Below, piece by piece: positions 634-30,016 of a DNA stretch of 64,000 nt. The stretch lies in NCBI GenBank assembly GCA_037481775.1, contig JBBFKZ010000001.1:151150-215149 (forward strand). Direction: 5' to 3'. The stretch's first letter is position 1; every line of letters begins with the position of its first letter. A program made the position numbers and the translations under genes. This stretch comes from Candidatus Bathyarchaeia archaeon. Lineage in GTDB: Archaea > Thermoproteota > Bathyarchaeia > Bathyarchaeales > Bathycorpusculaceae. The notes beneath the pieces were generated by a model that saw nothing but the letters and a program-made list of their open reading frames with translations, was not told where the DNA came from and searched no databases.

Positions 634-1574
634 GTCGGGCTTCGTTTCATACAAACTTTTTGCACCCCAATCTCTCACTCCTTTACCCGGCAAGACACAC
701 GTCAAATAAAAGCTTTATCAAACGGGGAAAAGCCTTGATAAATTATCGCATTGCTGGCGAAAAACGCGATTTGGCAGAGGCCCTTAAAGCATTAGATGCC
801 GTGTGCAGAAAATGCGTGCCTGTAACACCGCTTGAATGCATAACACGTTGCGATGTCTGGAGGCTAAAGAATGAACTTCGAAAACTGCGGGGAGTTATGG
901 AAAAACCAAATTTCATGAAAGAACTTCTAAATACTCTAAAGAATGAAACGCGACTGCAGATTCTAAAGACCATCGCAAATGAGGGTTATTCTGCAGATAA
1001 GCTTGATCACAATTTTAGAGAAGTAGGGCGCATGGACGGCAAAAACACTATTTATGAAGAATGTCTACAACCATTGGCTGCGGTTGGACTGGTAGCGGAA
1101 AACATGAACCAGCGATTTTACGCTACGGTTTTCGGATGCATACTTGCCAAGAGGCTTGATGGATTTGCTGATTTGATTCGCTTCTTGCCAGCCAATTCAG
1201 AATGCTACGAGGAAACTCTACTGACCACACTGCTACAAGGACCTAAAACCTTTAAAAACTTAGCATCACTTGTTTCGCCGAATATTGCCCCGCGCATCTT
1301 GAAGCGACTGAAAACAGCGGGTTTAATAGAAACTCCAGAAGATAAAGATTGCGTGTTCTTCTTTAGGTCGAAGCGTGACCCAGCGAAGGAGACACTTTCT
1401 AATGCTGAACGAAAAGTTTACAATGCTATTTCAGAATGCGGAATTTCAGCGCGGCAACTTTCTGAGAAAACAGGGATTTCCCCGAGAAGAATCTACTTAC
1501 ACTTGCGCCGGCTAAAAGGAAAAAAAGCTTGTTTTCGTAAGAAGAACACCAAAGACCTATCGCTTGACAGCTAA
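627..1574 (+). CDS. Winged-helix (ArsR/TrmB-like) transcriptional regulator with two wHTH modules; 3' end apparently frameshifted
   Basis: GTG at 627; TTG at 735 is an alternative start. 'ETRLQILKTIANEGYS' and 'ISARQLSEKTGISPRRIYLHLRRLKGKK' resemble wHTH helices. N-terminal Cys cluster 'CRKCVPVTPLECITRC'. After the A7 run at 1520..1526 the +1 frame reads a textbook wing, 'LVFVRRTPKTYRLTAKGLKL', up to TAA at 1669..1671. Confidence 0.6.
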   Translation: MSCRASFHTNFLHPNLSLLYPARHTSNKSFIKRGKALINYRIAGEKRDLAEALKALDAVCRKCVPVTPLECITRCDVWRLKNELRKLRGVMEKPNFMKELLNTLKNETRLQILKTIANEGYSADKLDHNFREVGRMDGKNTIYEECLQPLAAVGLVAENMNQRFYATVFGCILAKRLDGFADLIRFLPANSECYEETLLTTLLQGPKTFKNLASLVSPNIAPRILKRLKTAGLIETPEDKDCVFFFRSKRDPAKETLSNAERKVYNAISECGISARQLSEKTGISPRRIYLHLRRLKGKKACFRKKNTKDLSLDS

Positions 1575-1826
1575 AGGCTTAAAGTTGGCATCTTTGCTGC
1601 GGGAATTACAGGCGCTTGTTGAAGAAATCTGGAAATCTTCTGAGCAGTTAGACAACAGCGAAAACACTTAAGCGCAAGAGAAAAAACAGGAATGGGAGCT
1701 TGCAGCTAAACTATAGCCCAACAGCATAACGGATATTGTTGGCTGAAGATAGCTTGCTCATTTTATTTTTAATGGCGAAAACTGGCGTTAAAAGTGGAAG
1801 AAAACATGCTTCGTTATTTTCTTTTT

Positions 1827-3977
1827 CTAATTGTTGTGTTCGTGTTTTTCAAGCTTTTTCGAAACATATTTTTCAGGGTTTTTCTTGAATTCCTCTTCAC
1901 AATGCTTCGAGCAGAAATAGTAAGTTTTGCCTGCATACTCAGTTTGACCATACGCTGTCTCTGGCTCAATTTCCATGTCGCACACAGGATCCTTCACCGT
2001 GACCGGCGCTTCTTCCTTGAATGCTACGCTTCCTGGTTCATACTTCCTCAAGGTTTGGCTGTTAAGAGCAACTAATACTGTGCTCATAGACATGATTATG
2101 GCTCCAACAGCGGGAGGCAAAACTACGCCGTAACCGCTTAGTACACCAGCTGCCAAGGGTATGGCTACAATGTTGTAGCCTGCGGCCCACCACAAGTTCT
2201 GCGCCATCTTACGGTATGTTTTCTGTGAAAGAGCTATTACTTTTGTAACGTCTCTTGGGTCGTTTTTAACGAGGATTATATCCGCGCTTTCAATTGCTAC
2301 ATCTGTTCCCGCGCCGATGGCGATGCCAACGTCTGCCGTAACCAATGCGGGCGCATCGTTTATGCCGTCGCCCACCATAGCCACCTTATGACCCCTAGCT
2401 TTTAACGCTTTAATTGCCTCAGATTTTTGATCGGGCAGAACTTGCGCAAAATACTCGTCTATGCCAAGATCTCGTGCAACCCATTTCGCGACGGCTTCAG
2501 AATCGCCCGTAAGCATGTAAACCTTCAAACCAAGGGTTTTCAGTTTAGCCACAGCTTCCGCAGATTCCTTCCTAATCTTATCTGCCAACGCAAAGGCGCC
2601 GACAAGTTTTCCATCAGCAACTGTGAAAACAACTGTCTTTCCATGTTCCTGTAAAGTCTTAATCGTGTCATCGTTTATCTTTATTTTCATTTCATGCAGC
2701 AGCGCTTGACTCCCAACATATACTTCACTGCGCGCAACCTTCCCATAAGCGCCTTTTCCCGGTAACGCTTTGAAATCTTTTACTTTAGGAATTTCCACAC
2801 CTTTATCGTTAGCATAGCGCACAATGGCTTTCGCGATTATGTGCTCCGAATTACGTTCCACAGCCGCGGTAAGCGCCAGAAGCCGCTCTTGGGGAATGTA
2901 GGCAACAACGTCCGCGACGCCGAATTCTCCTTCCGTTAACGTTCCAGTCTTGTCAAAAACAACCGCGTCAACATCCTTAACCATCTCGAAAGCACGCCTG
3001 TCTCGGATAAGAATGCCACTTTTCGCAGTTATTGAAGTGGAAAGCGCCACAACCAACGGGATAGCCAACCCAAGAGCATGAGGACAAGCAATCACAAGAA
3101 CGGTTACTGTTCTTTCCAAAGCCACATACGCGCTGGCTAGGGCGGACCAAGCAACGAAAGTCACTATGCCCACGGCAAGTGCGACGTAAAAAAGCAACGC
3201 CGCAGCCCTGTTTGCAAAATCCTGCGTTCGCGACTTGCTTTCCTGTGCGGCCTTCACAAGCTTTATCACTTGTGCTATATACGTTTCTTCACCAGTCTTT
3301 TCCACCCTAACTTTCAAGGAACCTTCACCGTTGATAGCGCCGCCTATCACACGGCTTTCTTTAGCCTTAAAAACGGGCGTTGACTCGCCAGTCAGCAACG
3401 CTTCATTAACAAAAGATTCGCCTTCAACAACGACACCATCAGAAGGAACCTTCTCTCCCGGACGCACCAGCACCACATCACCAACCCGCAGTTCTGACAC
3501 AAGCACATCCACCACCTCACCATCCCGTATAAGATGTGCAGAGGCGGGCATGACGCGGACAAGCACTTCAAGCGCCCGCGAAGCACCAAGCACGCTTTTC
3601 GCTTCTATCCAGTGGCCTAGGAGCATAACATCGATTAACGTTGCTAGCTCCCAAAAGAAGTCCATGCCCGCTATGAGAAAAACGGTTGCGGCAGAATAGA
3701 AAAAAGCTACTGAAATCGCCATGCCTATCAGCGTCATCATTCCCGGCTGTCGGCGCTTAACTTCCTCAACCATGCCCTGCAGGAAAGGCAATCCACCATA
3801 GACATAAATTATCGCTGAAAGAACCAACAAATTTTCTCGCTGGTAAGGCACCACAATCCAGGTGAGTCCCAACCAGCTTTGAATAGTTTCAGATAGCAGC
3901 AAAACAGGAACTGTCAGCGCAAGAGAAAACCAGAATTTACGCTTGAACATTTGCATGTGATGAACATGATGAGCCAT
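1827..3977 (-). CDS. copB: Heavy-metal (copper) P1B-type ATPase, CopB-like, with C-terminal YHS/TRASH-like domain
   Basis: 716 aa. P-type motifs TGES ('LLTGESTPV'), '[10 protein letters not shown]' and '[10 protein letters not shown]'. Transmembrane 'CPH' motif and His-rich N-terminus 'MAHHVHHMQ'. C-terminal 'DPVCDMEIE...[19 protein letters not shown]'. Confidence 0.85.
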
Positions 3978-19968: not shown

Positions 19969-20823
19969 ATGTCCATAATAGAAACAAAAAACCTCACATA
20001 CATTTATCCCGGCGCAACATATCCCTCAATTAGCGATGTGTCAATAAAAGTAGAGAAGGGCGAATTCGTTCTAATTACTGGGCCCAGCGGCTGCGGAAAG
20101 ACAACATTGTGCCGATGTTTTAACGGGCTTATCCCACATTTTTACCAAGGCGAATTAAAAGGCGAAATAACCGTGGCCGGGTTGGATCCCACTAAGCATC
20201 ATACACACGAAATGGCAAAGAGCGTGGGCATGGTTTTTCAAAACCCGGAAAATCAGCTTTTTGCCTTATCCATAGAGAAGGATGTAGCGTTCGGACTGGA
20301 AAATCTAGGTGTACCCAGAGAAGAAATACGGAAAAGGGTAGATTGGGCGCTCATGCAAACGGGCATTTACGACCTACGTGAAAGGTCACCGCATGAAGTT
20401 TCGGGTGGTCAGCAGCAACGCGTTGCTATCGCCGCTGTCCTCGCCATGCAGCCCGAAATAATAGTTTTAGATGAACCGACCTCTTTCCTAGACCCGTTGA
20501 GTGCAGAGAGAATATTTGAAGTGATACATGAACTTAACAAGAAACTTGGAATAACCGTGGTGCTGGTGGAGCATCGGCTTGATTTAACCGCTAAATACGC
20601 CGATCACATAATAATAATGGACGATGGCAAGGTATGCTTCGACGGCGCGCCCAGAGAAATTCTAAGCACCGAAGAAACACGCCTAATCGGTGTAGGTATC
20701 CCGAAAGCCACGCTTCTTTACAATTTGCTTAGGAAGGAAGGCATAAAACTGAGCGATATTACGCCGTTGTCTTCGGAAGAACTGGCAACACTGCTGTTGG
20801 AGGCTCTGAAGCCACATGATTGA
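19969..20823 (+). CDS. ecfA1: ECF transporter ATPase component
   Basis: Walker A 'GPSGCGKTT', signature 'VSGGQQQRV', Walker B 'IIVLDEPTS'. Confidence 0.85.
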   Translation: MSIIETKNLTYIYPGATYPSISDVSIKVEKGEFVLITGPSGCGKTTLCRCFNGLIPHFYQGELKGEITVAGLDPTKHHTHEMAKSVGMVFQNPENQLFALSIEKDVAFGLENLGVPREEIRKRVDWALMQTGIYDLRERSPHEVSGGQQQRVAIAAVLAMQPEIIVLDEPTSFLDPLSAERIFEVIHELNKKLGITVVLVEHRLDLTAKYADHIIIMDDGKVCFDGAPREILSTEETRLIGVGIPKATLLYNLLRKEGIKLSDITPLSSEELATLLLEALKPHD

Positions 20824-21640
20824 AGCTGAAAATGTTCACTTTGTTTACCCCAACGGTGTGGAAGCCTTAAAGGGCGTTTCGCTGGTTATCAGGGAAGGCG
20901 AGTTTGTGGCTATAATGGGCCAGAACGGCGCTGGAAAAACAACACTGATCAAGCATTTTAACGGCTTGCTGAAGCCGACAAAAGGATCAGTGCGGGTAAA
21001 CGGCGTGGAAACTACCAAAACCAGTGTTGCTTCCCTTGCGCGAAACGTTGGTTTTGTGTTTCAAAATCCTGATCATCAGCTTTTCAGCGAAACAGTCGAG
21101 GAAGAAATAGCTTTTGCATTGAAAAACTTTGGATTCGAAGCCGACGTGATAGAAAAGCGCATCAGTTGGGCTTTGAATCTTCTGGGGTTAGAGCAGTACC
21201 GTAAAACTTCACCTTTTCTGCTAAGCGGCGGCGAGCGAAAAAGAGTTGCGTTAGCCTCTGTTCTGGCTTGGGATCCGCAAACGCTGGTTTTAGACGAGCC
21301 AACGATAGGGCAGGACTATCAACAGAAGGAAAAGCTCCGCCAGTTTATTATTCAAATGCAGACACAAGGCAAAACAGTTATTATAGTTACACATGATGTA
21401 GAATTTGTGGCTGAGTGCAACCCGCGAGTAGTGTTGATGAAGGAAGGAAGAATTGTCGCTGATGGCGAAGGTAAAGGAATACTCACCAACCCTGAAGTTT
21501 TAGCTCAGTCATCTGTTGTTCTGCCGCAGATAACTCAAATTTTCATGAAACTGACGCCGCTGGGTCTTTCGAAAGACGTCATAGACCTCTACGAAGCAAA
21601 GGAAATATTACTCAAGTGCTGGAAGGGAGGTAAGAAATGA
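20816..21640 (+). CDS. ecfA2: ECF transporter ATPase component
   Basis: Walker A 'GQNGAGKTT', signature 'LSGGERKRV', Walker B 'LVLDEPT'. Overlaps the upstream ATPase gene by 8 nt. Confidence 0.85.
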   Translation: MIEAENVHFVYPNGVEALKGVSLVIREGEFVAIMGQNGAGKTTLIKHFNGLLKPTKGSVRVNGVETTKTSVASLARNVGFVFQNPDHQLFSETVEEEIAFALKNFGFEADVIEKRISWALNLLGLEQYRKTSPFLLSGGERKRVALASVLAWDPQTLVLDEPTIGQDYQQKEKLRQFIIQMQTQGKTVIIVTHDVEFVAECNPRVVLMKEGRIVADGEGKGILTNPEVLAQSSVVLPQITQIFMKLTPLGLSKDVIDLYEAKEILLKCWKGGKK

Positions 21641-22425
21641 GCTTTTTTGACGGCTTAAAATTCCGCAAAGTCTACTCGCCAATTCACAATTTAGATCCAA
21701 GAATGAAGTTCATATATGTCTGCTCGGTGTTTGTAGCGGCGATTCTCTTCAGCGAAATTATTCCATTATCCATTCTTTTCTTGATGCAAATACCCTTTGT
21801 TCTATTGGCGGGCGTCCCAAAGGAGTGGCTCCGTTCGCTTCGCGGCGCCGTCTTTCTAGCCGCATTCATTTTCCTAATTAATATAGCAACCAGCTTTTTC
21901 ACTTCAGGCTACATGCTGACAGCAGCCAATGTGGAAAATGCTGCTGCCTTGACCCTGCGCTTTATAGTGCTCGTGGAAGCCTTCTCGGTTTTCTTTTTGA
22001 CAACCTCTCCAGACCATCTGGGTTTGGCGTTAGAGCAGAGCCATGTGCCCTACGAGTTCGCTTTTGCCTTCACAACTGCAGTGCGTTTTGTTCCTGTTTT
22101 GGCAGAAGAAGCTCATACGATAATGGATGCGCAAAAGGCGCGAGGGTTGGAGTTGGAGAAAGGTAGTTTCATGAAGAGGATTAGAAACTACATTCCAATT
22201 CTCATCCCGCTAATAGTCAGCGCTATCCGGCGAAGCCTCGAGTTGGCTGAAGCTATGGAGTCACGTGCTTGGGGCGCCGCGAAAAAACGCACAAACTTGT
22301 ACGCGTTAAAGCTGCACAGAGGCGATTTTGCTTTATTGACGATAACACTCGCGGTTTTGGCGATTGCGGTTTATGCTAGGCTTTATGTGCCTGTGCCAAC
22401 GTTAACTCAACTAATTGGAGTTTGA
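21637..22425 (+). CDS. ecfT: ECF transporter transmembrane (T) component, CbiQ family
   Basis: 262 aa and polytopic. 'AEEAHTIMDAQKARG' ARG-type coupling-helix motif. 4-nt overlap with ecfA2. No S component in the window. Confidence 0.8.
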   Translation: MSFFDGLKFRKVYSPIHNLDPRMKFIYVCSVFVAAILFSEIIPLSILFLMQIPFVLLAGVPKEWLRSLRGAVFLAAFIFLINIATSFFTSGYMLTAANVENAAALTLRFIVLVEAFSVFFLTTSPDHLGLALEQSHVPYEFAFAFTTAVRFVPVLAEEAHTIMDAQKARGLELEKGSFMKRIRNYIPILIPLIVSAIRRSLELAEAMESRAWGAAKKRTNLYALKLHRGDFALLTITLAVLAIAVYARLYVPVPTLTQLIGV

Positions 22426-22704: not shown

Positions 22705-24141
22705 GTGTACGCGGCAATTGTCCGAGAAAAAGAAACCCAAAAGCTGCGCTACGAAGTTATAGAGCCTACTCTCCAACCAAACGAGGAAAAGTATCTTCGT
22801 GAAATAAAGAATTTTCTGATGGATGAAGTAGACGTAAACTTGAAAGAAATTGAAAACAAAGACAAAGCAGAAAACTTTCTAAGACAAAAAATCCGGGGGA
22901 TCATAAAAAAGTACCGCATGAAAATCCCAGCAGAAGCGGTTGACAAACTCACCTATTACATAATAAGAGATTCCTTAGGCTACGGAAAAATTGACCCATT
23001 AATGAAAGATCCTTTAATTGAAGATATCTCTGCAGACGGCACAAACATTCCGCTCTACGTGTGGCATCGCTTCTACGAGTCGCTGCCAACAAACATAATG
23101 TTCACAAACGTCGCTGAACTGGATGCCTTCATAATTCGCCTTGCATATCTAGCTGGCAAAAGCATTTCTCTAGCTACACCAATTCTTGACGCGACTCTTC
23201 CAGAAGGAAGCCGCATACAGCTCACCTACGGCAGCGAGGTCACCCGAAGAGGCTCAACCTTTACTATAAGGCGCTTCAAAGCGGATCCGCTGACAATCTC
23301 GGATCTCATAGCTTTCAACACCCTTTCCTCGGAGATGGCTGCTTACCTGTGGTTCATCATAGAGAACCGAGCTTCAGTCTTGGTGGCAGGCGGGGTAGCC
23401 AGCGGCAAGACCACTCTGCTCAACTGCCTATCCATGTTCATAAAACCTGAAATGAAAATTGTAAGTGTCGAAGACACTCAGGAGCTTAATCTCCCACATG
23501 AAAACTGGATACCCTCCGTAGTGCGCACTGGCTTCAAAGGTGATGACAAGCAAAGCGGCGACATCACCCTCTTCGACTTGCTGAAGGCGGCGGTTCGGCA
23601 GAGGCCTGACTACATTATTGTCGGTGAAGTGCGTGGTGAAGAAGCCTACACGCTGTTCCAAGCCATGGCCACAGGGCACTTGGGCATGTCCACCATTCAT
23701 GCTGAATCAGTCGACGCCGTAATTAAGAGGCTTGAATCCGAGCCGATGAATATTCCTAAGTCGCTTATTGCGATGACTAACGTCATTTTAGTTATGGAAA
23801 GAACCGAAGTTAAAGGGAGACCTGCAAGGCGAGTGAGCGTTGCATCTGAAGTAAAAGGAATTAATGCAGAGACAGATGAGATTCTAACTGAAAATGTGTT
23901 CCGCTGGAGCCCTCAGTTTGACAAGTTCACTTCAGGCGACAGCGTCCTCTTGGAGAAGCACATGAAGAAGCTGGGTTTAACCGAGGAAGATATACAACGT
24001 GAATTTAAAGCTAGGAAGACTGTTCTGGAGTGGATGGTAAAGGAGGGGATCCGACACTACAGTGACGTGGCCAAAGTGATCAGAGAATACTATGCTAACC
24101 CGAACCGTGTCTTCCAAAAGGCGAGAGTGGGGTTCAAATGA
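22705..24141 (+). CDS. Type IV filament secretion ATPase (archaeal FlaI/PilB/TadA family); N-terminus probably out of frame upstream
   Basis: Walker A 'GGVASGKTTLLN', 'DYIIVGEVRGEEA', 'TGHLGMSTIHA'. The intact ORF starts at GTG 22705. The same frame is open back to 22507 and encodes 'AVFQEVYALQEPYV' with no start codon. ATG 22563 lies in another frame. Confidence 0.85.
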   Translation: MYAAIVREKETQKLRYEVIEPTLQPNEEKYLREIKNFLMDEVDVNLKEIENKDKAENFLRQKIRGIIKKYRMKIPAEAVDKLTYYIIRDSLGYGKIDPLMKDPLIEDISADGTNIPLYVWHRFYESLPTNIMFTNVAELDAFIIRLAYLAGKSISLATPILDATLPEGSRIQLTYGSEVTRRGSTFTIRRFKADPLTISDLIAFNTLSSEMAAYLWFIIENRASVLVAGGVASGKTTLLNCLSMFIKPEMKIVSVEDTQELNLPHENWIPSVVRTGFKGDDKQSGDITLFDLLKAAVRQRPDYIIVGEVRGEEAYTLFQAMATGHLGMSTIHAESVDAVIKRLESEPMNIPKSLIAMTNVILVMERTEVKGRPARRVSVASEVKGINAETDEILTENVFRWSPQFDKFTSGDSVLLEKHMKKLGLTEEDIQREFKARKTVLEWMVKEGIRHYSDVAKVIREYYANPNRVFQKARVGFK

Positions 24142-25133
24142 GAAAAAAGCTCATGAAGAAACTCGCTACTGCCAAGGAACATTTAGCAGCGCTTAAAGGG
24201 TTAGATGAAAGTTCAAAACAAACACAAAAATCACTCTTGAAAGAACCTGTTGGGTTTTTGGAAAAGCCGTTATCTATAGCTTATCAGCTAATGGGCAGTA
24301 AAGCTGAGCGGTTTATGCCCCTATTCAAAGATTTAGACCAAACATTGCAAAAAGCAGGCTTAAAAATTAACTTCAAAGCATATATAAGCTTAACAATTTT
24401 ATCGTCGCTATTGATCGCCTTGGCAGTAGCGGCAGTGTTGCCTCTATTGTTATTTTCTATTTGCGCCGTGCCAATAAGCTCAGCGCTCTTATTCGGTTTA
24501 GGCGGCGGTCTACTCGCATGTTTTCTCTCGATTATTGGTTTTTACCTCTATCCAGTTTATCATGCGGATAAGCATAAACGAGAATTGGATGACGAGTTGC
24601 CCTTTACGACTGGCTACATGGCTATCCTGTCAAGTGCAGCTGTTCCTCCTGAAAAAATTTTTTATTCGCTCTCAAACTTGAATGTGCCTTTAGCTGTTTC
24701 CGCAGAAGCCAAAGAAGTTGCAAAAGGCATCAACTTGTTCGGTTTAGACGTGATATCCGCCTTAGAAAGGGTGTCAAAACGCACACCTTCTGAAAAACTG
24801 CGAGGCATCATAGAGGGAATAATATCTACAATACACACGGGCGGCAACTTAAGTGCGTTTCTGAGAGGAAAATTTAAGGTCGCAATGAACCTGAAAAAAG
24901 TGGGACTCAAAAAGTACGCCGACAATTTGGCAATTCTGTCGGAAATTTATGTAGCCTTACTCTTGACTGGCCCGTTGCTTCTAGTCATTATGGTGTCGGT
25001 TATGTCGGTGATGGGCGGCAGCATAGGCTTACTCAGCCCCGACATGCTACTGGGGCTTTTAACTTATTTGGTGATTCCAGTTTGCGCTGTCGTATTCCTC
25101 CTAATCTTGGACTCAACTTCGCCAAAATGGTAG
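24138..25133 (+). CDS. Type IV filament platform protein, N-terminal half (T2SSF domain; FlaJ/TadB-C-like)
   Basis: 331 aa and polytopic. Cytoplasmic T2SSF-like segment 'LPFTTGYMAILSSAAVPPEKIFYSL...GGNLSAFL'. 4-nt overlap with the ATPase gene. Ends at TAG 25131..25133, in frame with the next ORF. Confidence 0.75.
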   Translation: MRKKLMKKLATAKEHLAALKGLDESSKQTQKSLLKEPVGFLEKPLSIAYQLMGSKAERFMPLFKDLDQTLQKAGLKINFKAYISLTILSSLLIALAVAAVLPLLLFSICAVPISSALLFGLGGGLLACFLSIIGFYLYPVYHADKHKRELDDELPFTTGYMAILSSAAVPPEKIFYSLSNLNVPLAVSAEAKEVAKGINLFGLDVISALERVSKRTPSEKLRGIIEGIISTIHTGGNLSAFLRGKFKVAMNLKKVGLKKYADNLAILSEIYVALLLTGPLLLVIMVSVMSVMGGSIGLLSPDMLLGLLTYLVIPVCAVVFLLILDSTSPKW

Positions 25134-25139
25134 ATAAAA

Positions 25140-25955
25140 ATGCCCAAGATAGAGCGTAAAACGAAAAAACTTGCGATCATGATTTCAGCTCTGATAGCTA
25201 CCGCAATAGTCCTTGCTGGCTATTTCACTGTTGGCCTCAGCCCCGCGTTAGATGACTTCGTGTTTTTCGGTTTTCTCATCGTTATTTCGCCTATCGCGCT
25301 CTTGAATTATCTTGATTACAGGTGGAGAAAAGCTGTTGACGAGCGTTTGCCCGACTTATTCCGAAGCATAGTTCAAGCTCAAGAGACAGGCATGACACTT
25401 CACAGCGCTTTAGAAGAAGCAGCAAAAAGAGACTATGGTCCGCTAACTCCTGAACTGAAAAAGATGACTGCACAGATTTCTTGGGGTGCAAGTTTCGAGG
25501 AGGCACTTTCAGCCTTTGGAAAACGCGTGGGCACAGTGCTAACCCAGCGGACGGTACCCTTGATAATTGAAGCTAGCCGTTCAGGAGGGCAAGCAGAGAA
25601 AATTTTCGGGCCTATGGGCAAATTTATCCAGAGCACTCTTCTGCTTGAGAAAGAACGCAGAACGCAGACCCGCCCATACATAGCCATAATCTACGTGGCG
25701 CTTTTCGTGTTTCTATTCACGATAGTGATTCTTTTCAAAACCTTTTTCACAAATGTCGACGGCACAGCCTTGTTTTCCATGTCAACGGTTTCACTTATTA
25801 ATTTGCAGCGAATTTTCATGCATTTAACGATAATTCAAGGATTTTTCGGCGGTCTCGTGGCGGGCAAAATGGGTGAAGGCTCAATAACCGCTGGCTTAAA
25901 GCACAGTCTCATAATGATGCTGCTGGGCTATGTTGCATTGAATTTCTTTTTGTGA
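25140..25955 (+). CDS. Type IV filament platform protein, C-terminal half (T2SSF domain; FlaJ/TadC-like)
   Basis: 271 aa. 'LPDLFRSIVQAQETGMTLHSALEEAA...SWGASFEEALSAF...IIEASRSGG' T2SSF-like domain followed by TM helices. Confidence 0.75.
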   Translation: MPKIERKTKKLAIMISALIATAIVLAGYFTVGLSPALDDFVFFGFLIVISPIALLNYLDYRWRKAVDERLPDLFRSIVQAQETGMTLHSALEEAAKRDYGPLTPELKKMTAQISWGASFEEALSAFGKRVGTVLTQRTVPLIIEASRSGGQAEKIFGPMGKFIQSTLLLEKERRTQTRPYIAIIYVALFVFLFTIVILFKTFFTNVDGTALFSMSTVSLINLQRIFMHLTIIQGFFGGLVAGKMGEGSITAGLKHSLIMMLLGYVALNFFL

Positions 25956-26386
25956 GGATGAAGAAAATGGCTAAGGCAGCTAAACGGTTTTTGCAGGATA
26001 AGCGGGCCATAACACCCGTTCTCAGTCATCTCTTGCTCACAGTCGTGGCAGTGGCGGTTATGGCCATTGCCACTTCAGCCACGTTCGTGATAACCACCAA
26101 TCTCAGGGAGACTATGGGCGAACGCGTCTCAGTCGAAGACGTCTGGTTTAACAGTTCCACTGGTACAGTGAACGTTTACCTACGTAACGTGGGTAAAACT
26201 GCCATCCAAGTCGTGGCCGTTTACGTGAACCACGTAGGCAGCCCATTCAACTCGCCTTTTCGTTTAGAGCTAAATCAGCATGGTTGGCTAAGCGTTAATT
26301 GCACATGGAATCCTGGAGACACTTACTATATAGACGTAGTCACAACTAGGGGGACTCATGTTGCAGGTTATTACAAGGCGCCTTAA
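25952..26386 (+). CDS. Archaeal type IV pilin-like protein (class III signal peptide)
   Basis: Basic leader, then 'KRAITPVLSHLLLTVVAVAVMAIATSATFVI', then a small beta domain ('VNVYLRNVGKTAIQVVAVYVNH'). Start is ambiguous: GTG 25952, ATG 25958, or ATG 25967, which has GAGG 8 nt upstream. Confidence 0.7.
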   Translation: MRMKKMAKAAKRFLQDKRAITPVLSHLLLTVVAVAVMAIATSATFVITTNLRETMGERVSVEDVWFNSSTGTVNVYLRNVGKTAIQVVAVYVNHVGSPFNSPFRLELNQHGWLSVNCTWNPGDTYYIDVVTTRGTHVAGYYKAP

Positions 26387-29036
26387 ACTGTTTAAACATG
26401 GAAAACGCGGCATAAGCACCGTCATAGTCGTCATGCTAAGCCTAGTCCTCATAGTAGTCATAGTTGGCAACGTAGTTCTCTGGAGCTATCAGATGAACCA
26501 GTTAGACATGGAAAGAATGCAGGAAACTCTGAGCCTCATTAATGCAACGCGCATAACCCGTTCCTCATGGAGCATCGCCCAAAGAGAGTACATTACCAGC
26601 GCTGGTAGTAAGCTAAGCGGAACGTTCGTAGATACAACTGCTGCCGATAGTCTCGCTGAAACTTTTAGAGAAGAACTTGAAGGAATTTATAGTTATAATC
26701 CTTCGAGTTATACGCTTGGCGGTGCAACAAGCTATGTATTAGGCGATATTTCAGACCTTGCGTTATCAGATGGAGTATGCATGAATTTCAGAAGTTACAT
26801 GTCCAGTTCTCCCGCTAACGACAAGACTGACGCCTTCGTCGCTTACAGGGATTCTACAACATCACTCAATACACCTAAATGGCGGGTATGGGATGGCGAA
26901 AGCTTAACATGGAACTCGCAGAGCGAGTTGCCAACAGCTAACAGCTCTGTCAGGTGGGTTCGCGTCGCATATTCGCCGCTGGAATCCAGAAGCTATGAAA
27001 AAATTGTCGTCACGCTGTCGGATGACGGCTACTTAGATGCTTATGTATGGAATGGAGCAGCATGGAATGTTACAAGCAACATTGCCTTTCCCGGCACCTC
27101 CGCGAACGCGTATAGATGTTTTGATGTGGCTTACGAAAAAACAAGTGGCAGAGCACTACTGGTTTACTCAAGAGGCACGACAACAAACGAGATAGGCTAC
27201 AGAAGATGGACGCCGGAAACAGGCTGGGGCCCTGAGCAACTTCTGGATTTACCGTACACGTCAGGCATAGTGCGTTGGATCAGTCTAGCGAGTAGCCCTG
27301 GAGCACGTGCAGGAACAAGCGATGATAACGAGATAGCCATGATTTATCTAGACGCGAACAACGATGTTCACGGCTACGTCTGGACTGGTTCAGCATGGAG
27401 CCTTATGGGTGCAACAGCAATCTGGGATGCCACAGCAGCAACGTCAACACGCGAGTGCATAGCCGTTGCCTACGAGCAGACCACAGGCGAAGCCATGTTC
27501 ATCTGGGCGGATTCTGGAAGCAATCGTTTCTACTATAGAACATGGAATGGCGCAACCTTGAGCGCGGCAACTCTTCTAACTATAACAGCCACAGGAGGCG
27601 CTGGTTACTGGGTAACGCTGAAAGCTGATCCCGCATCCGATGACATGCTTTTCCTCGTAATTGATAGTGGAGCAGACCTCAACACGGCTTACTGGAACGG
27701 CAGTACATGGACAGTTCACACAGAACACGACGACACAGTCGACACAAATGCTAGGCGTTGCGCCGATTTCGCTTGGGAGCCCTCAGGCGGAAAAGGCTTA
27801 CTAGTATGGGGAACAACCACTGGACAAATAGCATATAAGACGTTCGTTGCGCCAAACGCATGGGGCACGCAGCAAAACATTGCAATGGGCGGGGCAAGTA
27901 ACATTCATCCTTGGGTGCAGTTGAGAACTAATCCTCGAAATGTCCCTGACGACGTATTGATATTAGGCTTGGTCCTTGAGGGAACCGCTTATGATTTGGG
28001 CGCTATAAGCTGGGACGGGGCAACCTTAACCGTTCTAGGCTCAAGCGTTATCTCAGCAAACACCACCGTAATTACATATGAGTGCTTCGAGTTGGAGTTC
28101 GCTAATTTTGGCGTGCCAACGTTTACGTGCGAAGTGGAGTTTTCAGGAAAATCGGATGTCAAAAACTGGACCCAACTTCTCTGGGCAGCAGCTTTATCCT
28201 TCACAGTACCAGATGTAACAACAACGTTTCAATTATATAATTATAATTTGGGTCAGTATCCAACAAGTGGAAGTGGATACATAACCGACACCATCGGGCA
28301 AACTACGGTTCCAAAAAACCAGACTATACCAGTTTCCTCAACGGATTTTCGAGATGCCAACGGGAACTGGAAAATGAAAATAACTGGAACCAAAATCACC
28401 TATACGCAGTTTGAAATGCACGTTGACTGGATAGAATTTAAACCGACACTGTTTGATGTTTACCGCCTTAATGTCGTCAATAATTTTGCAGTGGATTTAT
28501 CAACTTATCCGCGGGAACACATTCAGGGTTTAGAGTTGCTAATTAAGTATAAAGTCTCCGAAAGCTCGGAAAGATGGTTCTTAAAAGCGTATAACTGGCG
28601 CGCCGCTGCTTTCAGTGATGTAGGCTTCAACGTTACAGCTGGAAGCCAGCCGATACTTGGTGAATGGACTGAGTACGCTATAGCTGTTACAGACGATTGG
28701 GCTGATTACGTAAACGAAGAGGGCCTGGTTCGTGTAGAGCTTTTTGATGAAGGCACAGGTGCAAATCAGACTGTGTTGGAAATCGACTTCTTTGCAGTAA
28801 GAGTCATAATTGATGCCACACGCATAGACGTGAAAAACTCGAGTCCAATAAGCGTTCGCATCGTAGCAGTTTGGGTCATAAACTCTACAATGCATCAGCG
28901 CTACGATGTAGACATGTTGCTTAACGCTGGAGAAGCGGCAACGTATATCCGCGCGGACATAAAAATGCCGCAAGATACTTTTTTGGCAAAGGTTGTTACA
29001 GAAAGGGGCAATGTAGCCGTTTTCTCAAAAGACTAA
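26358..29036 (+). CDS. Giant pilin-headed surface protein: class III signal peptide, 8-repeat beta-propeller-like module, two beta-sandwich-like modules, pilin-like C-terminal domain
   Basis: 892 aa. N-terminus 'KHGKRGISTVIVVMLSLVLIVVIVGNVVLW'. Eight 'Y..W.G..W'-type repeats spaced about 52-56 aa apart (residues about 158-581). The C-terminal 74 aa are paralogous to the small pilin's globular domain. Confidence 0.7.
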   Translation: MLQVITRRLKLFKHGKRGISTVIVVMLSLVLIVVIVGNVVLWSYQMNQLDMERMQETLSLINATRITRSSWSIAQREYITSAGSKLSGTFVDTTAADSLAETFREELEGIYSYNPSSYTLGGATSYVLGDISDLALSDGVCMNFRSYMSSSPANDKTDAFVAYRDSTTSLNTPKWRVWDGESLTWNSQSELPTANSSVRWVRVAYSPLESRSYEKIVVTLSDDGYLDAYVWNGAAWNVTSNIAFPGTSANAYRCFDVAYEKTSGRALLVYSRGTTTNEIGYRRWTPETGWGPEQLLDLPYTSGIVRWISLASSPGARAGTSDDNEIAMIYLDANNDVHGYVWTGSAWSLMGATAIWDATAATSTRECIAVAYEQTTGEAMFIWADSGSNRFYYRTWNGATLSAATLLTITATGGAGYWVTLKADPASDDMLFLVIDSGADLNTAYWNGSTWTVHTEHDDTVDTNARRCADFAWEPSGGKGLLVWGTTTGQIAYKTFVAPNAWGTQQNIAMGGASNIHPWVQLRTNPRNVPDDVLILGLVLEGTAYDLGAISWDGATLTVLGSSVISANTTVITYECFELEFANFGVPTFTCEVEFSGKSDVKNWTQLLWAAALSFTVPDVTTTFQLYNYNLGQYPTSGSGYITDTIGQTTVPKNQTIPVSSTDFRDANGNWKMKITGTKITYTQFEMHVDWIEFKPTLFDVYRLNVVNNFAVDLSTYPREHIQGLELLIKYKVSESSERWFLKAYNWRAAAFSDVGFNVTAGSQPILGEWTEYAIAVTDDWADYVNEEGLVRVELFDEGTGANQTVLEIDFFAVRVIIDATRIDVKNSSPISVRIVAVWVINSTMHQRYDVDMLLNAGEAATYIRADIKMPQDTFLAKVVTERGNVAVFSKD

Positions 29037-30016
29037 TCAGCGCCTAGTTTCTTTTTTAACGAAACTATAGCTTCTTCTTGGTTTTCAGCCTCTATTGAAT
29101 CGATGTTATACAATTCTGCCATTTTCTTCCCGTTTTCGCTGAGTTTTGGAATTGCAATTAAGTAGGCTTTTTCAGGTGAAACATCGAATATCTTGGCAAA
29201 TAATGCGATAACTGGCTGTTCTGACACAACTTTTTCAGTCGTAGTTGCCAAATCAAGCACGATCATTTTCTTTGGCTCGTCGCCTTTGTAGGCAGCTATG
29301 TCGAAGGAATGGTTTGCGCCCGATTTGCCTTTGAGAATCGCGGGGCTTTCAACCGTTAATCCTTTTTCTACGAGAGTTTCTCGTATTGTAGCAATCGCAA
29401 ACCAGTTCAAGAAGGATTCTGCTTTGATATTCTCTGTTATTTTGTACGCGTACACGTCTCTGATGACACATTCTTCAAATGTGGAATTTGTATGGCAGTT
29501 CCTGCAGAAATTGATGGTTACGGGAATGTCAAAGCTTTTACCGCACTCGTTGCACGTGCACCAGATTCCTGCTTTTCTATAATCAACATCAATTTTTCTC
29601 AGCGGTTCACGACATTTCGGGCAGACATATTTGTCTCCTTCAAGAAAGTTCTCCTCTACGTCCATGTAGCCGCATTTTATGTGCTCTATCAACGCGCTTT
29701 TTTGAATATTAATTGATTTACAGAAGGGGCAACAGTAACGAACAGAAATGTTTGCGGAATCACATTTTGGGCAAAAAATGACTTTGTCATAAAGCTTCCT
29801 TTCCAAGATACCTGTAGCGTAAAGCTTGTTTAAGAAAGGCAAGACCTGCGCCTGGTCACCTACAATGTCCTCCACTACTGGGTATTTATAACCGGCTTTT
29901 GGATCGTAAACAGGTTCAAGGCTTTCAAATTTTCCGCTCAGAAATTTGCTTAACAAAACTTGTACATTCCGATCCTTATAGAGTGTAGGCGTCTCTTTTT
30001 TTTCAGTATTTTGCAT
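29033..30016 (-). CDS. Multi-zinc-ribbon protein with C-terminal alpha/beta domain (hypothetical; possible regulator)
   Basis: 327 aa. CxxC pairs at C82/C85, C96/C99, C132/C135, C155/C158 and C171/C174. C-terminal 'GKSGANHSFDIAAY...MIVLDLATT'. Convergent with the giant pilin gene, with a 4-nt overlap. Confidence 0.45.
   Translation of the reverse strand: MQNTEKKETPTLYKDRNVQVLLSKFLSGKFESLEPVYDPKAGYKYPVVEDIVGDQAQVLPFLNKLYATGILERKLYDKVIFCPKCDSANISVRYCCPFCKSINIQKSALIEHIKCGYMDVEENFLEGDKYVCPKCREPLRKIDVDYRKAGIWCTCNECGKSFDIPVTINFCRNCHTNSTFEECVIRDVYAYKITENIKAESFLNWFAIATIRETLVEKGLTVESPAILKGKSGANHSFDIAAYKGDEPKKMIVLDLATTTEKVVSEQPVIALFAKIFDVSPEKAYLIAIPKLSENGKKMAELYNIDSIEAENQEEAIVSLKKKLGAD

Follow-up and report, generated by a model that had tools for sequence, protein, structure and literature searches.

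The 64,000 nucleotides analysed here (the window, in whose numbering all positions are given) come from a Candidatus Bathyarchaeia archaeon (assembly GCA_037481775.1, contig JBBFKZ010000001.1, positions 151,150 to 215,149 of the forward strand). Within a pilus locus they carry a large gene whose 892-residue product has the ends of a pilin and about 760 residues between them. The open reading frame (ORF) at 26358..29036 on the plus strand begins with an ATG preceded by a Shine-Dalgarno-like AGGGGGA. The product is 100% identical to P0001, a hypothetical protein from a Bathyarchaeia metagenome-assembled genome (MAG), and its homologues all carry the database name 'hypothetical'. We built a full-length AlphaFold2 model on 92 homologues (mean predicted local distance difference test score, pLDDT, 89.5; predicted template-modelling score, pTM, 0.63), which runs through a leader, a helix (residues 19-53), a small mixed region (57-158), 32 strands (159-586), two beta modules and a six-strand C-terminal domain. 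The gene can be divided accordingly.

26358..29036 (stop codon included), plus strand: whole gene for the 892-residue modular pilin-like protein (ORF list; AlphaFold2 model)
26358..26411, plus strand: basic leader, residues 1-18, ending KRG, with predicted class III (prepilin peptidase) cleavage after G18, just upstream of 26412 (FlaFind-type site, motif conservation, profile similarity)
26412..26516, plus strand: hydrophobic pilin-type N-terminal helix, residues 19-53 (model; sole hydrophobic segment; hhalign to the small pilin)
26517..26681, plus strand: first strand after the helix and N-piece 1 (Nd1), residues 54-108, a constant part of the scaffold (present in minimal homologues; homologous to Nd2)
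26682..26831, plus strand: N-piece 2 (Nd2), residues 109-158, which travels with the propeller cassette (recurrence of the Nd-propeller-module unit; Nd and module counts)
26832..28115, plus strand: eight-bladed beta-propeller, residues 159-586, four A/B two-blade units (model strands, hhalign, Foldseek)
28116..28451, plus strand: module A, GH114_assoc-like beta domain, residues 587-698 (hhalign to module B)
28452..28802, plus strand: module B, GH114_assoc domain, residues 699-815, a constant part of the scaffold (Pfam PF14741; kept in minimal homologues)
28803..29033, plus strand: C-terminal pilin/FlaG-type beta-sandwich, residues 816-892, ending VVTERGNVAVF (separate model, PDB fold search)

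The two pilin-like ends

The N-terminus of the large protein looks pilin-like in its sequence, rather than like an ordinary signal anchor. It has the make-up of a class III signal, a short basic leader ending in [KR]-[GA] followed by a hydrophobic helix of about 20 or more residues. A FlaFind-type site, RGISTV, lies at residue 17 (leader KRG/ISTV, the slash marking the predicted cut), residues 18-40 form the single hydrophobic segment of the whole protein, and in the model a disordered basic leader precedes the helix. For comparison with other genomes we scanned one genome per species with a profile from 19 closer sequences, the 92-sequence alignment being too diverse for this purpose. The scan yielded 130 relatives, and nearly all of these come from Bathyarchaeia MAGs of hot-spring, sediment or peat origin. 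The cleavage-site motif [DN]-K-R-G/[VI]-S-N-V-I-V-V-M-L-S-L is kept across 51 related loci. A profile of the small pilin encoded immediately upstream aligns to residues 5-63 of the large protein, a stretch that takes in leader and helix and reaches into the first strand (hhalign probability 69-85%). Together with the conserved pilus operon described below, these findings bear out the class III signal peptide and pilin helix proposed in the initial annotation, which had been made from the sequence without database searches. Cleavage at KRG/I would give a mature protein starting at I19.

The C-terminal end was assigned from its fold. Modelled alone, residues 816-892 form six strands at pLDDT 88, and a fold search against 350,542 PDB chains returned only one match at E <= 0.001, the Pyrobaculum calidifontis type IV pilin 8fk7 (E 6.5e-4, template-modelling score, TM, 0.71, 20% identity). 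The next best matches are archaellum FlaG and FlaF (TM 0.67-0.73). The domain is a pilin-type beta-sandwich, but one that is not contiguous with the helix: in 8fk7 and in FlaG/FlaF the sandwich directly follows the helix, whereas in the large protein the two pilin parts are some 760 residues apart. It is conserved in nearly all family members. The initial annotation had likened the last 74 residues to the globular domain of the adjacent small pilin. As a statement about sequence this is marginal (22 residues aligned by BLASTP, pairwise E 0.002; hhalign E 0.004, probability 8%), and we therefore took the pilin nature of the domain from the fold search, where the match to 8fk7 supports the structural half of the claim.

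The two ends bear on whether the protein belongs to a filament at all. It could instead be an uncleaved, signal-anchored or S-layer-associated surface protein that stands outside any filament and owes its place in the operon to co-regulation only. Leader cleavage is a prediction, propeller-cassette relatives with Sec-type signals exist, and Makarova et al. 2016 (PMC4858521) left open 'S-layer protein or adhesin' for the extra components of thaumarchaeal pilus loci. We nevertheless regard this explanation as highly improbable, since leader and helix resemble those of the pilin in profile comparison, the K-R-G/[VI]-S site is strictly conserved, and the C-terminal domain has the pilin/FlaG fold. 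Moreover, the pilin-type head and the C-terminal domain co-occur across the family, whereas the relatives with Sec-type signals have other C-termini, and the small pilin gene runs 29 nt into the large gene.

The propeller and the exchangeable middle

Between residues 159 and 586 the 32 strands of the model fall into eight groups of four. The alignment used for modelling took in proteins with a non-homologous middle, and the propeller was still modelled at pLDDT above 90. W-x-G-type cores lie at residues 173, 227, 280, 339, 392, 443, 492 and 548, with a measured spacing of 49-59 residues. The initial annotation had counted eight such repeats, had seen in them two alternating blade types arranged as four duplicated two-blade units, and had proposed an eight-bladed propeller. 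All of its quoted motifs are found at the positions it gave, and hhalign on the 19-sequence family alignment agrees with the blade types and the duplication. Any two of the four two-blade units match with a probability of 85-99% (E 7e-6 to 2e-17). When single blades of like parity are compared, odd with odd or even with even, the values reach 60-98%, with the exceptions of blades 1 and 7 (1%) and blades 6 and 8 (27%), and odd-even pairs lie mostly below 35%. Repetition of this kind is far beyond chance. The strand at residues 159-163 (AFVAY) is similar to strand four of the even blades (ALLVYS) and probably closes blade 8.

The best PDB fold matches of the propeller are also lectin propellers, which adds to the eight groups of four strands in favouring the proposed fold. 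Foldseek placed first the seven-bladed Photorhabdus PHL/PLL proteins (E about 1e-9, target-normalised TM 0.65-0.69, about 12% identity), followed by the six-bladed fucose lectins AAL, AFL and AofleA. These are thus the closest structural relatives that the search offers, but they have seven or six blades where the propeller has eight, and the identity is low. Glycosidase and integrin matches superpose poorly on the propeller, and a viral structure library gave just generic propeller and jelly-roll matches, again with poor superposition. The W-x-G-x-x-W hairpin of the propeller agrees in spacing with WDGxGW, a motif of the RSL-type lectins.

Sequence searches place the large protein in no known group. 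PDB sequence searches with the single protein and with the family profile gave no match even at E <= 10, NCBIfam had no match to the large protein, and in Pfam its only match was GH114_assoc, in module B. The Pfam model Beta-prop_PLL (PF26607) and the models of fungal fucose lectins do not match the propeller, which on this count is not a sequence member of those families. By Pfam, NCBIfam and the names of its homologues, no curated family covers the large protein, and its architecture does not fall into a described pilin or adhesin family, which would have spoken against the initial annotation.

We considered whether the propeller might be catalytic, of the glycoside hydrolase or lyase type, so that a polymer would be degraded rather than simply bound. 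The Foldseek list includes GH43-type arabinanase and galactanase as well as sialidases, module B belongs to a family whose name refers to its occurrence with GH114 hydrolases, and among the relatives there is one with a dockerin and one with a GH85 C-terminal domain. The enzymes superpose poorly, however (TM 0.15-0.28, root-mean-square deviation 18-28 A, against TM 0.65-0.69 for the lectin propellers), and no hydrolase family matches by sequence in Pfam. We therefore judge a catalytic propeller to be very unlikely.

In a search with the propeller alone, 1695 out of 1.84 billion representative proteins matched at E <= 1e-3; of these, 1255 reached E <= 1e-10 and 382 reached E <= 1e-30. Proteins that carry it reach 7926 residues and contain up to 18 matched stretches each; the giants P0241 (6719 residues) and P0242 (7926 residues) have up to 16-18. 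In a sample of propeller proteins the companion domains are MG2, PKD, CARDB, dockerin, fn3 and Big_13, typical modules of extracellular adhesion or display, and closer relatives carry LamG and DUF2341. Such company fits a binding module. Separately, the pilus locus of one distant relative (L002) encodes, at 1499-3493 on the minus strand and about 4.5 kb upstream of the large pilin-like gene, a 664-residue protein with a true PLL-type lectin propeller (PF26607).

The propeller is followed by two modules of about 110 residues that the initial annotation had thought to be related. Modules A and B are indeed homologous (hhalign 99.7%, E 5e-26, 108 columns), and module B matches PF14741 above the family threshold (E 2.5e-8, 34.6 bits, cut-off 22), a family that also matches 12 of 19 relatives. 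The signature strings 'VDWIEFKP' and 'IDFFAVRV' lie at residues 689 and 809, and the C-terminal domain brings 'IDVKNSS...' at residue 823. Neither the N-domain nor the C-terminal domain is related to modules A and B by hhalign.

The relation of these parts to the pilin ends becomes clear from the relatives, whose architectures were read with domain hidden Markov models (HMMs) cut from the family alignment. The dominant order is a pilin head, the N-domain, a variable middle, one to three GH114_assoc-like modules and the C-terminal domain, and the product of the large gene ranges from 291 to about 930 residues. Five minimal relatives of 291-309 residues have no middle and align to the large protein in two blocks only, residues 1 to about 120 (44-54% identity) and about 700-891 (41-46%). 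The middle is therefore an inserted, exchangeable cassette. Together with the 8fk7-like fold of the C-terminal domain, this alignment supports the earlier suggestion of a pilin split by an insertion. The scaffold that receives the cassette exceeds a plain pilin, in that it consists of the helix, a small N-piece, one GH114_assoc-like module and the pilin-type domain, about 290-300 residues in all.

A different cassette occupies the same scaffold in the P0079-P0114 group (about 811 residues; for example in loci L013, L015, L019 and L020). Members of this group share about 70% identity with the large protein over residues 1-149 and 591-892, and their middle of about 365 residues consists of three repeats of about 115 residues without BLAST similarity to the propeller. 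A six-bladed propeller, considered for these relatives, was rejected for the same reasons; their HMM 'match' arises because the proteins sat in the model-building alignment. Other middles were seen as well. Inserts of about 155 residues occur in relatives of about 450-475 residues (L052, L055, L060, L062 and L068), and inserts of about 330 residues in relatives of about 600-680 residues (L053, L072, L074 and L077); both kinds match none of the domain models that we built.

The cassette also occurs outside this scaffold. The Nd-propeller-module unit stands alone behind Sec-type signals or other class III heads, and it is repeated in tandem in proteins of 2860-3635 residues from Micrarchaeota, Woesearchaeota and Bathyarchaeia MAGs (loci L027, L044, L046 and L048). 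Several proteins (P0059, P0073, P0074, P0099, P0113, P0067 and P0071) carry the propeller cassette on other class III heads, for example ...KKALAIPVTFLILF..., ...RALSPVIGAIILIAI... and ...KKGQFSIIAALLV..., so that one and the same cargo has been joined to several pilin types that are unrelated to one another.

A regularity in the counts of the flanking pieces suggests how the parts are packed. The N-domain consists of two homologous pieces of about 40 residues, Nd1 and Nd2 (hhalign 96.8%, E 3e-10), and of 128 complete proteins, 124 have as many Nd pieces as modules (1:1 in 22, 2:2 in 97 and 3:3 in 5). The equal numbers suggest nested domains, in which each Nd piece together with one module would form a single domain that hosts the next element. 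From these counts and from the domain boundaries, the simplest reading of the large protein would be the nested order helix[Nd1[Nd2[propeller]modA]modB]C-domain.

The conserved pilus locus

The large gene is the fifth of a co-directional set and faces a convergent gene at its 3' end. The flanking genes are the following.

22705..24141, plus strand: pilus assembly ATPase (Pfam T2SSE, E 7e-39, and PilB3_C; NCBIfam FlaI match below cut-off; position conserved in 56 loci)
24138-25133 and 25140-25955, plus strand: two half-size platform genes, a split TadC/FlaJ (Pfam T2SSF in both; ArlJ/UpsF-like matches; conserved in 55-62 loci)
25952..26386, plus strand: small pilin gene (139-144 residues), the probable major pilin (weak Pilin_N and UpsA matches)
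29033..30016, minus strand: convergent gene for a TackOD1 protein, cysteine-rich and zinc-ribbon-like (Pfam PF18551, E 2.5e-42)

The order ATPase, TadC1, TadC2, small pilin, large gene and convergent TackOD1 is kept in about 55 of 80 species-level loci, almost all of them from Bathyarchaeia, and more distant relatives of the large gene are likewise embedded in pilus loci with an ATPase, a platform protein, small pilins and TackOD1. The large gene is thus encoded together with a VirB11/FlaI-family ATPase and a TadC/FlaJ platform protein, and apart from it and the small pilin gene the locus has no class III-type ORF. The small pilin gene stands upstream of the large gene in 60 loci. It has 1774 homologues, some of them named FlaG/FlaF family or Flp pilin by the Joint Genome Institute, and the best 120 clusters are 70-99% identical. 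Most of these homologues have 139 residues, which suggests that the true start is an internal ATG near 25967 and not the GTG at 25952.

The TackOD1 gene shares 4 nt with the 3' end of the large gene and holds its position in 58 of 83 loci; its product is a probable regulator or cytoplasmic partner of the pilus system. TackOD1 corresponds to arCOG06883, which has been noted in thaumarchaeal pilus loci (PMC5847659, PMC4858521). Directly upstream of the pilus operon, three ORFs at 19969-22425 on the plus strand look by eye like an ECF/ABC-type transporter set, with two ATP-binding proteins and one membrane component.

The locus combines an ATPase and two platform genes with a pilin, a proposed adhesin and TackOD1. 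It thereby has the same gene content as subsystem 4A and the thaumarchaeal arCOG06883 loci (PMC4858521, PMC5847659, bioRxiv 10.64898/2026.04.22.720090), to which we liken it by this content. Bathyarchaeota are among the hosts of subsystem 4A, and its adhesin has been called 'remotely homologous to PilY' (bioRxiv 10.64898/2026.04.22.720090). The papers on subsystem 4A give no anatomy of the adhesin.

The same machinery could serve a different end. In a bindosome-like arrangement the large protein would be processed and handled as a pilin is, but would stay on a short pseudopilus or membrane stub and capture a substrate, such as a polysaccharide, for uptake. The class III signal and the pilus operon are compatible with such an arrangement, the ATPase, the platform protein and the small pilin all show weak matches of bindosome BasE/BasF/BasA type in NCBIfam, and a recent study proposes that 'functionalised' type IV filament machineries with class III binding proteins are widespread (bioRxiv 10.64898/2026.04.22.720090). 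On the other hand, Pfam, NCBIfam and PDB sequence searches revealed no similarity of the large protein to solute-binding proteins, and no transporter is linked to the locus across Bathyarchaeia, the conservation of the ABC/ECF-type genes at 19969-22425 not having been examined. The extreme conservation of the small pilin, moreover, is what one expects of a major pilin that forms filaments. We consider the bindosome-like arrangement unlikely.

Proposed function and known counterparts

In our view the large protein is likely to be a minor pilin of modular build and to act as the adhesin of a type IV pilus that is conserved among Bathyarchaeia. Its basic leader of 18 residues would be removed after KRG by a prepilin (class III) peptidase whose gene would lie elsewhere, the hydrophobic helix of residues 19-53 would enter the filament core, and the beta-sandwich at the extreme C-terminus would supply the pilin head. 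The roughly 760 residues between these pilin parts would be taken up by the nested N-piece 1, N-piece 2, propeller, module A and module B. So bulky a subunit would fit only at the tip of the filament, and it would therefore probably be incorporated first, with the small pilin polymerising beneath it as the ATPase and the two platform proteins drive assembly. We infer this tip position from steric bulk and by analogy with PilB, GspK and CofB (PMC8179133). The propeller and the GH114_assoc-like modules would bind an external ligand, most likely a glycan, and swapping or losing the middle cassette between species would retune the stickiness of the pilus.

Several observations weigh against this interpretation. 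At the N-terminus, cleavage at KRG/I is a prediction, and a simple motif search for the GxGD motif of A24-type prepilin peptidases found none in the window; the peptidase may be encoded elsewhere in the genome. At the C-terminus, a search of the C-terminal domain against the small pilin family with hmmsearch gave at most 6.8 bits, below the maximum of 11.4 bits for shuffled decoys, for which reason we rejected sequence homology to the adjacent pilin as evidence. The relative placement of the domains in the model is uncertain, because its pTM is only 0.63, and the evidence for closure of the propeller, for contact between helix and C-terminal domain and for the pairing of Nd pieces with modules comes from secondary structure, patterns in the sequence and counts of domains. 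Among 19 relatives, Pfam found no propeller, lectin or PilY1 family at E <= 5. For the large protein itself, the PilY1 family (PF05567 / IPR008707) gave no Pfam match at E <= 5 and no PDB sequence match, and PilY1 is not among the best 50 fold matches. The large protein shows no enrichment of N-glycosylation sequons (11 observed, 8.4 expected). Finally, the Arg and Glu residues with which RSL-type lectins bind sugar appear not to be conserved in the propeller. Because of this, our hypothesis that the propeller may bind glycan is drawn from the similarity of folds.

The modular pilins of bacteria provide a near counterpart to the proposed adhesin. Streptococcus sanguinis PilB and PilC carry a vWA module and a lectin module, respectively (PMC8179133, PMC9934059), and bacterial modular pilins have been modelled at pilus tips (PMC8179133). 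PilB, PilC and the large protein have in common a class III signal and pilin helix joined to a bulky, non-pilin binding module, a predicted tip position and a high variety of modules. The large protein is a modular pilin in the sense that it combines a pilin module with a domain that is not specific to pili, the same cassette occurring in non-pilin proteins. It does not, however, have the layout in which the module follows a complete N-terminal pilin module on a short linker (Raynaud et al. 2021). In PilB the module is appended in this way, whereas in the large protein the cargo precedes the beta-sandwich, lying between it and the helix, and is apparently nested. The host is also archaeal, the cargo is an eight-bladed propeller with GH114_assoc-like modules, and there is no sequence relation to PilB or PilC.

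Among other minor pilins, the pseudopilin GspK (PMC8179133) comes closest in topology, as its extra domain lies inside the pilin module and a tip location has been proposed for it. The insert of GspK is a single alpha-domain, in contrast to about 760 residues of beta domains here, and homology is not expected. The large type IVb minor pilins CofB and TcpB (PMC8179133) have beta-rich C-terminal binding domains, are placed at the tip and are thought to initiate assembly. Unlike the large protein, they are bacterial, lack a propeller and carry their extra domains after the pilin module. PilY1/PilC shares with the large protein a propeller in an adhesin associated with type IV pili, a likeness to PilY1 that has been pointed out before for the adhesins of archaeal subsystem 4A (bioRxiv 10.64898/2026.04.22.720090), but PilY1 is no pilin, and minor pilins hold it in place. 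The initial annotation had described the large protein as a functional analogue of PilY1 fused to a pilin; the pilin-type N-terminus agrees with the fusion, and membership of the PilY1 family by sequence or fold is not borne out.

The general kind of protein is thus already in the literature, both as modular pilins (PMC8179133) and as predicted adhesins of archaeal pilus loci (PMC4858521, bioRxiv 10.64898/2026.04.22.720090). The anatomy of the large protein has not been described before, but it is not a new principle. A bolder reading combines the nesting with the spread of the propeller and depicts a 'Russian-doll' pilin, split by a GH114_assoc-like domain that is itself split by a second copy, which in turn is split by the propeller, with the innermost cassette freely exchanged between species. 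The protein would then act as a programmable adhesin at the tip of the one pilus that is conserved throughout Bathyarchaeia, and the propeller would found a new glycan-binding family, which in other archaea, such as DPANN lineages, also builds giant surface proteins of up to 18 copies each. We put this combined picture forward tentatively and think it somewhat doubtful as a whole.

The combination of one nearly invariant and one highly variable pilin-type gene points to a simple pilus whose specificity would reside in a single exchangeable tip subunit. The large protein would extend to archaea the 'modular pilin' principle established in bacteria, with a different and apparently recursive topology of domains within domains. 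Once defined, the ligand of the propeller would annotate a large set of archaeal surface proteins, about 1,700 representative clusters. Bathyarchaeia are among the most abundant uncultured archaea of sediments, hot springs and peat, and the 'Russian-doll' reading, if true, would provide a tangible starting point for understanding how these uncultured archaea fasten themselves to polymers or to partner cells.

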